From Escherichia coli O157:H7 (lineage in GTDB: Bacteria > Pseudomonadota > Gammaproteobacteria > Enterobacterales > Enterobacteriaceae): a stretch of 64,000 nucleotides of DNA. Within the stretch, counting starts at the first letter, position 1, and the number at the start of each line of letters is the position of its first letter. Position numbers: made by a program. Below, piece after piece: positions 24,001 through 30,000 of this stretch. Location of the stretch: NCBI RefSeq assembly GCF_013167455.1, contig NZ_CP038328.1; one strand, given 5' to 3'.

Positions 24001-27000
24001 CGATGAACTGACCTGTATGACAGCGCGAATTAACCGTGGTGAGACGATACCTGAACCAGTAAAACAACTTCCTGTTATGGGCGGTAGACCTCTAAATCGT
24101 GCACAGGCTCTGGCGAAGATCGCAGAAATCAAAGCTAAGTTTGGGCTGAAAGGAGCAAGTGTATGACGGGCAAAGAAAGATTCTTCGTTACTTGAAGAAA
24201 TACAGTGTTTATTGTTCTTTTGAGATGTTGCGAAAACAGGAATTACCACGGTAAACATTTTGTAGCTGACCCATGCATTGATGAAATATTGTGGGTATTT
24301 AATAGAGCATAATTATCAAGTTGCGTAAGATGTGGAGTAATGGTATGGGCGGTGTTAGCACCGCCTTTAATTAAAGCTCAGAAAGCTGTGATAATATTTT
24401 TTCTGGAGTGGTTTCGTTGGAAATGCTAAATAATACAGCACCTTTGACTGATTCATCTCTCATTTCAATTTCACATGAATTATGGTTGTATGAGATTGCA
24501 TAATTTTTTAATGTTCTTTCGCTTTGCCACCACACCATATTTGCAAGACTTCCGTTATACGTTCTTATCTCGATTGATCCGGGCAGGGCTTTCCAGATAA
24601 CACCTCCTAGCAATGTAAGAGCGGCTGCACCAACATTTTTTGCATGATGGTTAGAACGTTCCATTACCCCTTCAGCATAACGATGAAGAATCTCTATGTC
24701 AGTCGCTTTGATAGTCATGTTATTTCCATGTAATTGCTGTGTGAAACGTAGTGTTAGTTAGGTGTTAGCAGAATATAGCATCAAAGTCGAAACCGGTAGA
24801 AAAAATATTGGTGATTATTTCGCTGCATTTGGAACTGGAACAACAATGATTATTAGCATGATTGCTTTTTCCAGTCATAAGAATGAGTCGTGTTAATTTT
24901 TTCTATTCAATAGGAAATTATCATGTCATCAGAATATGAACAACTACGGTGACTTCTGCGCTAAACGGGGACGTTTATGCGCACATACAATCCAAACTCT
25001 CTTCTCCCTCCACAGATGCAGAAATACACCTGCGATTTTTTGCATTCGGTGTTTTTGGCAGCCAAGAACAGGGAGTCTCTGTTTGTCTGGCGGCTAAAGG
25101 TGATATGGAAATCGTGATGTCTTAGCCTAAAGTAGTTGCAACAGTTGGAGCGATTATGGTGGTAGTAGTGATCATCGCGCCCCCCATATGCAAGGGTTGA
25201 CGACATTATTTATCCGGCGCTATATTCTGTGCGTTGCCGCAAAATCGGCACACGGGATTGGCGTCCCGGACATCAAAACGACGCATAACCGCGTTCGCGG
25301 TTTTTTTATGCGCAGTGCACGTCTACACAAAAATTATGGTGGGCTGTGTGAGGGCTTCTTCGGAAGCGCCGGATTTCGTTTTGACCGGTTACGCCAACCT
25401 TGCACAGTCCACCACCAGTCGATTGGCGTCGTCGGTGGTGATAGCTCAAATTCAAAACGAGATTATCGCTATGGTCACTCAGCTCGCATTCCGCGATGTA
25501 AAATTCACTCCTATAAATCACAACAACCAGATCTGGTTTACCAGCAAAGAATTGGCGGCAGCATTAAAATATGCCAGCACCAAAGCAGTAACCGACATCT
25601 ACAACAAAAATATTGATGAGTTTACTGACGGAATGTCTCAGGTCGTCGAATCAACGACCTCAGGAAATTATCGTAAGAAGACTCGCATTTTCTCCCTCCG
25701 TGGCGCCCATCTGATCGCCATGTTCGCCCGCACTCCTGTGGCCAAAGAATTCCGCCGCTGGGTGCTGGATATTCTTGATCGAGAAATTCAACAATCCCCA
25801 ATCACAAAACAATTCACTGATAACGAACTTTGCACACTTGCTTGGTTATGGCGGGCAAGTGACACAATGTTAACCGCTTGCCAAAACGTCACTCCGCTTC
25901 TTCAGGTAGCAGAACACCGCGAAGCCGGTCGCTTCACTTCAATCGAACAAGAATATCCCCGGATACTCAATAAGGCACAGGCAATCCTTGCCAGAGAAAC
26001 GGCACATGTAAAATTCCGGCCGTGGCAGGATGATAAGTGGAGTCGAGTATTGACGCATTTACGTTCTGAACGGCTGTAATAAAGTTGCGGGAGAGAAATG
26101 CCGCTAGTATTTTGTAATTAATTGAATGCTGACGGTTTAATGAGAAGTCAAGAACACTACTTGTACTATAATCGTTCGATGTTAGTGAGGGTTTGATGCA
26201 AAAAATGAAGTGATTGACCCTAAATTTGCGCGATCAGCGACAGATTGTACACCGAGATCCTGTGGGCTGGAATTTGCAGAGAAATACCGAAAATGATATC
26301 CAATATTGTTTTCAGTTCCTACATCATACCTGATAAGGGTATAATCATAAAAATTAGGATAATTCAAGTTATAATTGTATGAATAAAAACGACCTTGAAG
26401 CATTATCTGACACTAGGCTTAATGAGGCCAAATGCTTGCTTGATCATGGCTTTTTTCATGGTGCATATTATCTTTGTGGGTATGCAGTTGAATGTGCATT
26501 GAAGGCCTGTATTGCCAAGTCATTTTTACAACATGAGTTTCCAAACAAAAAAGTCGTAAATGATTCATATACTCATGATTTGTCGCAACTTCTCAAAATT
26601 GCCAACTTACATCAAATTTTGATTGCTGACGCAAAAAATGATGTTTCGTTGGAGATTAACTGGTCGGTCGTTAAAGACTGGAGCGAGCAATTTAGATACG
26701 ACAATAACATAAGTAAAGCTATGGCCGAACAATTGTTTGATGCTGTAGGTGACCAAAATTCTGGAGTTTTGAAATGGGTAAAAGCACACTGGTAATCGGC
26801 AGAGAGTTGACAAAAGATATGGAATTCTCAGGTCAATTTTTGTTAAAAAAACTCAAGTTACAGAATTTAACTATTGATGCTGCAATGTGGTTTTATTACC
26901 CAGATCTATCTTGGAGATATATTTTAGTTATCAGTGACTTCTCAGAACGTGGGCCGGCAGAAATATATAGAAAAATCAGTGAGATAAATAGAAATAGCAT

Positions 27001-30000
27001 ATCAAAAAAGTATAAGCCGATACCATTAGAAGCAATTGAGGCTAAGGGGGATTCAGCTTTTGTTTATAAAATGTTAAAAGGATTTGCTAGAGTCAACGAT
27101 GGTAAAGTTCGCGTTTCTAATTCTATGGTAAATGGTTTAGAAATCGTTGACTGTCTGATCTATGAGTTAAAATAAGAAATCTCTTACTGGGTATCATTAT
27201 TGTTTAAATGACTTTTGATTTTCAATAATCAACTTGTCATAATTAAGTCACCGGAGTTTGAACTCCTCCGGTGACTTCTGCGCTAAACGGGGACGTTTAT
27301 GCGCACATACAATCTAAACTATCTTCTCCCGTCACAGATGCAGAAATGCACCTGCGATTTTCTTTATCCAGCGTTTGACCTCTGCGGAGGTGAAGCGTGA
27401 ACCTCCCACAAGACGGCATCAAACTGCATCGCGGTAACTTCACCGCTATCGGTCAGCAGCTCCAGCCTTATTTGGAAGACGGCAAGTGCTTTCGCATGGT
27501 GCTTAAACCGTGGCGCGAGAGACGCAGTCTTTCCCAGAATGCACTTAGCCACATGTGGTACAGCGAAATCAGTGAATACCTTATCCGCAGGGGGAAATCG
27601 TTCGCTACCGCAGCATGGGTAAAAGATGCTCTCAAACACACATACCTCGGTTATGAAACCAAGGACCTGGTTGATGTCGTAACCGGCGAAATCACTACTA
27701 TCCAGTCGTTACGCCATACCTCCGATCTTGATACCGGAGAGATGTATGTCTTCCTGTGTAAGGTTGAAGCCTGGGCGATGAATATTGGCTGCCACCTGAC
27801 TATTCCGCAGAGCTGCGAGTTCCAGCTGCTGCGCGACAAGCAGGAGGCGTAATGGCTACACCGCTTATTCGTGTCATGAACGGACACATCTACAGAGTAC
27901 CAAATCGTCGTAAGCGTAAGCCTGAGCTAAAACCATCCGAAATACCAACACTGCTCGGATATACCGCCAGCCTGGTTGATAAAAAATGGTTGCGACTGGC
28001 AGCAAGGAGGAATCATGGCTGATTTGAGAAAAGCAGCGCGTGGTCGCGAATGCCAGGTAAGAATCCCTGGCGTATGCAATGGCAACCCTGAAACGTCTGT
28101 ACTGGCACATATCCGGCTGGCTGGACTGTGTGGCACCGGTATTAAACCGCCAGACCTTATTGCCACCATTGCCTGTTCTGCCTGTCACGACGAAATCGAC
28201 CGCCGCACGCATTTTGTCGATGCTGAGTACGCAAAAGAATGCGCGCTGGAAGGTATGGCGAGAACGCAGGTTATCTGGCTGAAAGAGGGGGTAATCAAGG
28301 CGTGAATACCTACAGCATCACATTACCCTGGCCTCCGAGCAATAATCGCTATTACCGCCATAATCGCGGGCGCACGCACGTCAGCGCAGAGGGGCAGGCA
28401 TACCGCGATAACGTCGCCCGAATCATTAAAAACGCAATGCTGGATATCGGCCTGGCTATGCCTGTGAAAATCCGCATTGAGTGCCACATGCCGGATCGCC
28501 GTCGCCGTGACCTGGATAATCTGCAAAAAGCCGCTTTTGACGCACTCACTAAAGCAGGTTTCTGGCTGGATGATGCTCAGGTCGTTGATTACCGCGTTGT
28601 GAAGATGCCTGTTACCAAAGGTGGGAGGCTGGAACTGACCATCACCGAAATGGGGAATGAATGATGTTTGAGTTTAATATGGCAGAACTTCTTCGCCACC
28701 GCTGGGGGCGTCTGCGCTTATATCGTTTCCCCGGTTCTGTTTTGACCGATTACCGAATACTGAAGAATTACGCCAAAACCCTGACAGGAGCAGGAGTATG
28801 AAGTCAGAGATAACAATCAACTAATACTGTTTTGTTGATTTTTGCTTGTAATTGGCGTTCTGGTCTGATTTTTGTGGAGTAAGTTGATGCGTGATATTCA
28901 GATGGTTCTTGAGCGTTGGGGAGCGTGGGCGGCTAATAATCATGAAGATGTGACCTGGTCGTCCATTGCCGCCGGTTTTAAGGGACTGATCCCCGAAAAA
29001 GTAAAATCACGCCCGCAGTGCTGTGACGATGATGCGATGGTGATATGCGGGTGTATAGCCCGCCTTTACCGGAACAATCGCGATCTGCATGACTTGCTGG
29101 TTGATTATTACGTGTTGGGGGAGACGTTCATGGCGCTGGCACGGAAACATGGGTGCTCTGACACCTGTATAGGTAAACGCCTTCACAAAGCGGAGGGGAT
29201 TGTTGAAGGCATGCTGATGATGCTGGGAGTGAGGCTTGAGATGGATCGGTATGTTGAGCGTGAATTGCCGGGAGGGAGAACCTCTGTATTTTATCAGCGA
29301 AAAAATAGTTTACGATCGTAAAAATCTGCATATCATGATAAGAGTGGTTACATTGCCACGCTGCTTAACCCGCCGATGCGCGGGTTTTTTTGTACCCAGA
29401 ATCCTGTGAGCTATACGGAAAGTACACAGAAAGGAAGGTGCGACCACAATTAATAACAAAATCTTAAAAATTGCACATGGCACTATTAGTTTTCTAAATA
29501 TTGTGTATTTTTTGTATTGCAGGATGACCCTGTAACGAAGTTTGCGTAACAGCATTTTGCTCTACGAGTTTGCCAGCCTCCCCCAGTGGCTGGCTTTTTT
29601 ATGTCCGTAGCGTCAAAGCAGCAATGTCGCTGGGGCGTCGTGCAATTGGCGTTGAGCTGGAGACTGAACGTTTTGAGCAGACGGTCAGGGAAGTTCAGGA
29701 TTTAGTCAGTCAGAACGGATGATATTGCAGGATTAGTTACGTACCGTTATTATCCTGCGCCCGGCCCTTTAGCTCAGTGGTGAGAGCGAGCGACTCATAA
29801 TCGCCAGGTCGCTGGTTCAAATCCAGCAAGGGCCACCATATTACATACCGCTATTAGCTCATCGGGACAGAGCGCCAGCCTTCGAAGCTGGCTGCGCGGG
29901 GTTCAAGTCCCCGATGGCGGTCCATTATCGGTATTCAGCGTTGTTAGCTCAGCCGGACAGAGCAATTGCCTTCTAAGCAATCGGTCACTGGTCCGAATCC

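Follow-up and report, generated by a model that had tools for sequence, protein, structure and literature searches.

The 64,000-nucleotide window of Escherichia coli O157:H7 DNA analyzed here (NCBI RefSeq assembly GCF_013167455.1, contig NZ_CP038328.1) is a lambdoid prophage that carries, between the replication gene P and ninB/ybcN, a cassette of two overlapping genes, referred to here as A and B. Gene A encodes a HEPN-domain protein, and gene B encodes a protein whose predicted fold is closest to that of the minimal nucleotidyltransferases (MNTs), the classic partners of HEPN proteins. Because of this predicted fold, we read the pair as a divergent HEPN/MNT-type module. B would control A by binding and not by AMPylation, in a toxin-antitoxin or abortive-infection role. 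This reading is put forward tentatively, at somewhat less than even confidence. The anatomy of the dyad is kept, while three of its defining features differ: the HEPN gene comes first, the HEPN protein lacks the motif His, and the partner lacks nucleotidyltransferase (NTase) motifs.

The two genes were consistently found together. A profile of A, searched against 100,044 species genomes, identified 381 loci, 80 of which were retrieved for neighbor analysis; in every one of these (80/80), a hidden Markov model of B detected B directly downstream of A on the same strand. B was also present beside A in all 42 of the IMG/VR contigs that encode A, and A was located upstream in each of three look-ups that started from divergent B proteins. 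Over the genome and viral loci combined (122), the HEPN gene was always the upstream one. The pair occurs in, among others, Proteobacteria, Chloroflexi, Acidobacteria, Bacteroidota, Planctomycetes, Nitrospirae, Cyanobacteria, Chlorobi, and Verrucomicrobia, as well as archaea of the anaerobic methanotrophic group ANME-2 and the Methanosarcinales. Conserved co-occurrence in other genomes, which the first-pass annotation of this DNA had put forward as a check on the pair, is thus observed.

The junction between the genes is similarly constant. In 67 of 75 cleanly parsed pairs, drawn from many phyla, the overlap is exactly 22 nt. In the window, the ATG of B lies 7 nt after a GGAG sequence and falls within the Lys132-Trp133 codons of A. 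Across the pairs, a GGAG-like sequence falls in the Gly129-Val130 codons of A, and the ATG or GTG of B is located at the conserved Trp codon in all that were listed. Judged by these features, translational coupling of A and B is deeply conserved.

The first-pass annotation had described two open reading frames (ORFs) of 138 and 133 amino acids overlapping by 22 nt, and the ORF listing of the window returned the same coordinates (Table 1). It had also given their composition as about 30% GC. The AT-richness is clear, as the GC content of the pair is 35.1% (A, 36.9%; B, 33.6%) versus 51.4% for the whole window, while the figure itself was slightly too low. At the composition of the pair, an open stretch of 133 to 138 codons arises by chance about 1e-5 times per start, or about 0.17 times per 64-kb window. 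As both A and B are conserved as proteins across phyla, they are considered real genes.

A was more conserved than B (mean pairwise identity, 0.49 versus 0.33; higher for A in 98% of comparisons), and the distance matrices of the two proteins were correlated (r = 0.73). Slower divergence of A than of B is what is usually seen for an effector and its regulator. A model of a B-(GGGGS)5-A fusion, computed with 36 paired sequences, had a predicted local distance difference test score (pLDDT) of 89.8 and a predicted template modeling score (pTM) of 0.88, with only the linker disordered. As a pTM near 0.5 would be expected for two independent domains of about 135 residues, this model is taken as a confident prediction of an A-B heterodimer. 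As in type II toxin-antitoxin systems, the genes are small, co-directional, and overlapping, and their products are predicted to form a complex. No conserved third gene was detected when flanking ORFs were clustered for the 75 loci. The recurrent neighbors, RF2, LysS/EpmA-like proteins, and EF-P, reflect lineage-specific synteny. One Nitrospirales contig (L036) encodes two complete A-B pairs 4 kb apart (positions 5001-5794 and 9033-9827).

Protein A matched the Pfam HEPN family PF05168 (E = 1.7e-5), as did 24 of 26 diverse relatives, and has an all-alpha HEPN fold with a four-helix up-and-down core. The HEPN-like pattern initially noted in the first ORF was thus substantiated. No solved structure was found by sequence when the A family profile was searched against the PDB. 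Alignment of the 26 sequences, which come from many phyla, identified the following invariant residues: R13, G28, Y30, Y31, L32, G34, Y35, E38, C39, and K42 in the N-terminal part and F54, P55, H66, L71, N94, W95, W101, R106, Y107, and G129 in the remainder. Although R106 is invariant, it is not followed by a conserved His 5 to 7 residues later (the protein in the window reads R-Y-D-N-N-I-S-K from R106), in agreement with the earlier remark that the canonical Rx4-6H motif is absent. AF0298-type HEPN-T proteins and AbiV retain the Arg but not the motif His, and they have a second, strongly conserved His on its N-terminal side; this arrangement has been proposed as an alternative active site (Anantharaman et al. 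2013, PMC3710099). A likewise combines the invariant motif Arg (R106) with an invariant upstream His (H66), and in the alignment these two residues fit the AF0298/AbiV alternative-site pattern. Among defense models, A weakly matched the 138-position PADLOC profile PDC-M28A (29.7 bits), and A together with distant relatives matched this profile at 30 to 37 bits (E values of 1.8e-7 to 9e-10).

Protein B proved far less tractable by sequence. Nothing significant was found for B in Pfam, NCBIfam, PADLOC (E ≤ 1), or the PDB sequences, and the only PHROGs families matched, phrog_5737 and phrog_5760, are of unknown function. A word-indexed search with B recovered only 32 relatives, in enterics and Acinetobacter. 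However, the genes downstream of distant A homologues could be aligned with B, and a B profile that included them matched 2474 cluster representatives at E ≤ 1e-3 and 1207 at E ≤ 1e-10. Counted as clusters at 50% identity, the B family therefore comprises at least 2474 members. Not one of 131 B-family members examined matched any Pfam family, NTase families included. Domain fusions that might be informative about B were also sought, and only sporadic C-terminal extensions were found. These include a DUF1508 (PF07411) extension in one family member (L098:654-1211) and unrelated extensions of 20 to 140 residues in two others (L043 and L055).

An AlphaFold2 model of B built with the family alignment had a pLDDT of 93.4 and a pTM of 0.87. 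Its predicted topology consists of a1 (residues 14-29), b1 (34-41), b2 (47-53), a2 (56-74), b3 (88-91), a3 (96-101), and a b4-b5 hairpin (112-132). While the first-pass annotation had matched the second ORF to nothing, this no longer holds at the level of predicted fold, given the MNT-like topology described above. A Foldseek search of B against AFDB50 returned only relatives named "uncharacterized protein." The B family consensus contains neither the G[GS] nor the DxD motif, and in a by-eye register against an MNT sequence, made without a structure-based alignment, the DxD positions on b2 apparently correspond to W47-R48-x. B was also rejected as a sequence relative of the MNTs, as hhalign gave a probability of only 0.6% when the B family was compared with a family of genuine MNTs (PF01909/PF18765) whose seed was an MNT in locus L026. 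B is thus predicted to have an MNT-like fold, yet it is no recognizable nucleotidyltransferase. The family nevertheless keeps conserved residues: W39, G60, and Y130 are invariant, and charges are conserved at D/E44 (97%), K/R48 (95%), R113 (98%), D/E125 (79%), D126 (98%), and R/K131 (92%). Position 125 is a Val in the B protein of the window. No DNA-binding domain of the helix-turn-helix, ribbon-helix-helix, or AbrB type was detected in A or B by Pfam, NCBIfam, or fold searches.

Enterobacteria have acquired the pair horizontally, as the cargo of a variable slot in their prophages. It is present in 189 of 5426 complete E. coli genomes (3.5%), is at least 99% identical among them, and is chromosomal in all, including prophages of O157:H7, O26, and O111 strains among others. 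In E. coli, it is directly upstream of orf33-ybcN every time, while the upstream neighbor varies: ant in strain E2865 and an O157:H7 strain, and a ren pseudogene with a TagO-like gene in EC21Z-014. In E2865, identical DNA is found in a prophage integrated beside tRNA-Arg and fimZ, with the gene order int ... exo-bet-gam ... repressor ... O-like, P, a reverse-strand hypothetical gene, ant (P22AR-C), A, B, a 33-codon ORF, ybcN (ninB), ninE, ybcO, rusA, ylcG, and Q. At the DNA level, the pair was not found in deposited phage genomes. Klebsiella phage Kp4864-1 encodes adjacent A and B proteins with 59% identity, likewise between P and ninB, and lambdoid prophages of Klebsiella carry the pair upstream of ninG and Q. 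In Acinetobacter, it is located at a prophage end, with umuDC-like genes next to it; AbiH is close by in one case. The pair is rare among IMG/VR contigs (42 of 2.9 million), and most of those that carry it are enterobacterial prophage-like contigs. Atypical GC content, sporadic presence, a fixed slot, variable neighbors, and a flanking repeat (see below) together characterize the pair as a prophage accessory ("moron") cassette, and its initial placement in a prophage accessory hotspot was correct.

The cassette appears to bring its own upstream region. Despite the different upstream genes in EC21Z-014, the DNA of this strain is near-identical to that of the window from about position 25993 through the pair; the AT-rich leader of about 300 nt therefore travels with A and B. 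A perfect TATAAT without a good -35 element was read from the leader sequence at positions 26167-26172, and no strong sigma-70 site was found on its + strand in a promoter scan. Rfam models detected no RNA antitoxin or riboswitch near the pair; the C4 and isrK hits obtained belong to the upstream ant module.

As a divergent HEPN/MNT-type module, the pair would be a self-contained derivative of the HEPN/MNT dyad. A would be the effector, probably an RNase using H66 and R106, the latter beside the invariant Tyr107. B would be translated by coupling from within the 3' end of A and would most likely regulate A, as an antitoxin or sensor, through stoichiometric binding. AMPylation of A by B is unlikely, as B has no G[GS] or DxD motif and no sequence-profile similarity to MNTs. 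A would be held inactive in the complex with B and, once B was lost or displaced by phage infection or loss of the element, would be freed to cut RNA. In E. coli prophages, where it occupies the P-ninB accessory slot, the pair would serve in addiction or abortive infection. RNase activity, toxicity, neutralization by B, and a phage phenotype are each something that we infer.

Several observations weigh against this reading. No PADLOC v2 defense model, and no toxin model, matches A and B as one system. The near-invariant charged residues of B exceed what a passive inhibitor would need, and B carries neither a DNA-binding domain nor NTase motifs. Furthermore, beyond the enterics and Acinetobacter, most contexts examined are housekeeping operons and not defense islands. 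In these operons, the pair is co-oriented with its neighbors at spacers of 3 to 48 nt. The arrangements include purM-A-B-purH in Chloroflexi, ddl-A-B in a Bacteroidota genome, prfB-A-B-lysS(-like) at seven Methylococcaceae loci (L037, L046, L065, L067, L078, L085, and L087), and efp-A-B at five Acidobacteriaceae loci (L052, L058, L062, L075, and L086), where the pair begins 11 to 48 nt after efp. The translation-factor neighborhood may be lineage synteny only or may reflect a link to translation. A housekeeping position conserved across genera is as compatible with a cellular function as with a selfish one. In favor of the module reading, one Woeseiaceae contig carries the pair in a stretch rich in toxin-antitoxin genes, amid PIN, HicB, and Fic genes.

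Decayed loci bear on the same question. B is disrupted and A intact at L002, an isolate genome, and at L073, the two including one metagenome-assembled genome. In L002 (positions 3393-3857; Catalinimonas alkaloidigena GCA_029504655.1), an in-frame TAA interrupts B at codon 20, and the A protein is identical to that of metagenome contig L003, whose B is intact. The reverse situation, a disrupted A with an intact B, was found at L031 and L084. The loci with a disrupted B and an intact A argue against a strictly lethal A. The toxin-antitoxin or abortive-infection signature initially seen in the pair therefore stands in part: the obligate coupled pair, the predicted complex, and the mobile cargo in enterics are in keeping with it, while the lack of a matching system model and the housekeeping contexts elsewhere are not.

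A related possibility, which on balance is rather unlikely, is that A and B constitute a two-protein system of many bacterial phyla, some archaea, and prophages with a control mode of its own. B, with an NTase fold devoid of NTase signatures, would control the HEPN protein A, which would use a noncanonical His66/Arg106(-Tyr107) site, or the two proteins would together make up a new composite active site. Such a system would be a separate branch of the HEPN-MNT world, controlled by binding or sensing instead of AMPylation, and would serve abortive infection in prophages.

The main rival explanation is a nontoxic, "domesticated" heteromer with a cellular role, that is, a complex that binds or modifies nucleotides or RNA and has a composite site formed by a HEPN-like and an NTase-like subunit; the prophage copies would be morons that supply this activity. 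Analogues would be kanamycin nucleotidyltransferase or GlnE-type enzymes. The E38-x3-K42 pattern on helix 2 of A recalls Glu145 and Lys149 of kanamycin nucleotidyltransferase, a resemblance that provides a lead and not a test. The conserved position of the pair in housekeeping and translation-factor operons across genera, with tiny spacers, agrees with such a complex, as do the many invariant charged residues in both proteins and the loci in which A persists beside a disrupted B. There is also precedent, since MNT-HEPN pairs have repeatedly been domesticated into enzymes whose HEPN component lacks the RNase residues (PMC3710099). However, B has neither the metal-binding DxD nor the G[GS] motif, and AT-rich prophage cargo that occurs sporadically in enterics and Acinetobacter is unlike a housekeeping gene pair. 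We regard a domesticated complex as unlikely.

A function that benefits the phage itself, for example, in counter-defense or in the lytic cycle, with expression from pR together with the nin genes, is improbable. The pair does lie co-oriented in the early-right operon between P and ninB, and no strong promoter of its own was detected. However, the great majority of the family is found in cellular chromosomes without phage genes nearby, viral contigs with the pair are as rare as stated above, and a leader that travels with the cassette suggests regulation of its own. Least probable of all is a canonical type VII HEPN-MNT system, in which B, as a highly derived nucleotidyltransferase, would still be active and would AMPylate A at Tyr107: this residue is invariant and adjoins the motif Arg106, MNT-associated HEPN proteins carry a conserved Tyr (PMC3710099), the MNTs of HepT/MntA systems adenylylate their HEPN toxins (PMC7641770 and PMC11586414), and B has the predicted MNT-like fold with two or three conserved carboxylates (D/E44, D/E125, and D126) and conserved basic residues, but the NTase motifs are missing, apparently with W47-R48-x in place of DxD in the by-eye register, neither the Pfam nor the hhalign comparison connects B to NTases, E125 is not kept in the B protein of the window, and the gene order is opposite to that of MNT-HEPN dyads.

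The first-pass annotation had noted a hairpin with a 10-bp stem after the two genes (Table 1). A hairpin is indeed present 70 nt past the stop codon of B, with stem arms at 27245-27256 and 27266-27277, a 10-bp GC-rich core, and a folding z score of -7.4 for the region. However, homology to other lambdoid phages starts at about position 27211 and so covers the hairpin, which is the counterpart of repeat_region 82-110 of phage 82, described as a "possible regulator-binding site" upstream of orf33/orf151 (ninB). As it is located in DNA common to other lambdoid phages, the hairpin is considered phage backbone outside the cassette. No U-run follows the 3' side of the stem, so that the hairpin is not a clear intrinsic terminator, and its assignment as the terminator of the A-B operon was rejected on both counts.

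A repeat search and alignment identified a 162-nt direct repeat, with copies that are 81% identical and spaced by 2322 nt, that brackets a block of cargo consisting of the C4/isrK RNAs, ant, A, and B. Elsewhere among lambdoid phages, this boundary sequence is found next to other cargo, for example, Rha or an alpha/beta hydrolase, which suggests that cassettes are exchanged through recombination at this sequence.

Table 1. Positions in the window of genes A and B, their junction, and the flanking features
Feature	Coordinates	Strand	Description
Direct repeat, left copy	24893..25054	+	162 nt; duplicated ninB-leader sequence; left bound of the cargo
Leader	25993..26378	+	Last ~85 nt of ant (P22AR-C) plus ~300-nt AT-rich noncoding stretch
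Gene A	26379..26795	+	ATG start; 138 aa; HEPN-domain protein of the HEPN-T/UPF0332-like group, without Rx4-6H
Translational-coupling junction	26763..26795	+	GGAG at 26763-26766; B start at 26774; overlap at 26774-26795
Gene B	26774..27175	+	ATG start; 133 aa; predicted alpha/beta fold with MNT-like topology, without G[GS]/DxD
Direct repeat, right copy	27215..27376	+	162 nt; includes the hairpin and the first part of the 33-codon ORF that precedes ninB/ybcN
Hairpin	27245..27277	+	12-bp stem, 9-nt loop, without U-tract; part of the lambdoid orf33-ninB leader

Other accessory genes were observed in the same prophage. On the - strand, a 535-amino-acid ORF (19143-20750), within a very AT-rich stretch (GC content, ~0.31), lies directly beside a cI-like S24 repressor gene (20857-21585, -). 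It matched the PADLOC candidate PDC-S25 over its full length (E = 2e-235) and contains a SIR2/ThsA-like domain at residues 147-259; by these matches it is likely a single-gene defense candidate at the rexAB-equivalent position, where the E2865 prophage holds other genes. Rfam searches of positions 25220-25419 (+) detected isrK (64 bits; gathering threshold, 50) and C4 antisense RNA (82.5 bits; threshold, 45), together with a c4 a1/b1 target element at 40.6 bits, which is under the Rfam threshold. These elements are directly upstream of ant (25471-26079), with a promoter-like site at 25197-25226, and together with ant they form an antirepressor control module like P1 immI or Gifsy-1 isrK. Finally, the AT-rich gap after gene P encodes a 115-amino-acid hypothetical protein on the - strand (24371-24718; phrog_5959; WP_000152742.1), for which no PADLOC match was obtained.

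HEPN-MNT pairs are regarded as being among the most abundant types of toxin-antitoxin system, and their known mode of control is AMPylation of the toxin. The family described here is a large sister family that keeps the two-protein architecture and has lost the hallmark motifs of both enzymes. Unusually well preserved are the 22-nt coupling overlap, from E. coli to archaea, and a set of charged residues that are invariant in A and in B. If A is indeed an alternative-site RNase and B a pseudoenzyme regulator, the pair would offer a test of the 2013 "alternative His" proposal for HEPN-T and AbiV proteins and would add a new mode of neutralization. As Pfam, NCBIfam, and PADLOC contain no model for the B family, its genes are at present annotated as hypothetical everywhere, and it merits a family definition of its own. 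The E. coli cassette is a candidate defense or addiction element of prophages. Literature searches with the RefSeq accessions of the pair and with PDC-M28 returned nothing, and a search for HEPN proteins with an inactive NTase returned nothing relevant.

Among known systems, type VII HepT/MntA (Shewanella SO_3166/SO_3165, PDB 5yep; Aphanizomenon, PDB 7ae2) likewise pairs a HEPN protein of about 135 amino acids with a partner of about 130 that has an MNT-type alpha/beta fold, to which the fold of B is similar by prediction. The modified residue of HepT is a tyrosine next to the catalytic motif, and A shares both a conserved Tyr beside the motif Arg and, by prediction, the tight complex. According to PMC7641770 and PMC11586414, the MNT neutralizes the HEPN toxin by adenylylating it; a conserved Tyr is a feature of MNT-associated HEPN proteins (PMC3710099). 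In contrast to the order of these dyads, MNT (5') and then HEPN (3'), the A-B pair is HEPN first. A also belongs to the PF05168/HEPN-T clade, not to DUF86, and lacks the His of Rx4-6H, while B is without the G[GS]/DxD motifs and is not similar to MNTs in sequence-profile comparison. With the HEPN-T/UPF0332 proteins TT1696 (1ufb), AF0298 (2hsb), and ST0689 (1wol), A shares the second-His pattern of AF0298 (H66/R106), although the PDB profile search gave no sequence-level match to them. The usual partners of the HEPN-T clade are recognizable MNTs. For PDC-M28, a PADLOC candidate, the component A profile is matched by A at low scores, whereas B matches no PADLOC model.

HepS of Gifsy-1, a solo HEPN abortive-infection protein, resembles A in occupying an accessory slot by the replication genes of a lambdoid prophage (PMC13043305). 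However, HepS has a canonical R100-H105 motif and acts alone as a tetramer, without a conserved partner gene. With regard to gene order and mode of action, there are parallels in RnlA-RnlB and LsoA-LsoB, in which rnlA precedes rnlB and, as in A-B, the gene of the HEPN toxin comes first and that of a small protein antitoxin second. These antitoxins neutralize by binding, which is the mode proposed here for B. RnlA and LsoA differ from A in being large, multidomain proteins with a canonical motif, and RnlB and LsoB are unrelated to B. The toxin RnlA is a HEPN ribonuclease, and its operon, rnlAB, is described as a system of anti-phage defense (PMC8266594). Overall, we regard the A-B module as a variant among HEPN-type modules and not as a categorically new system.

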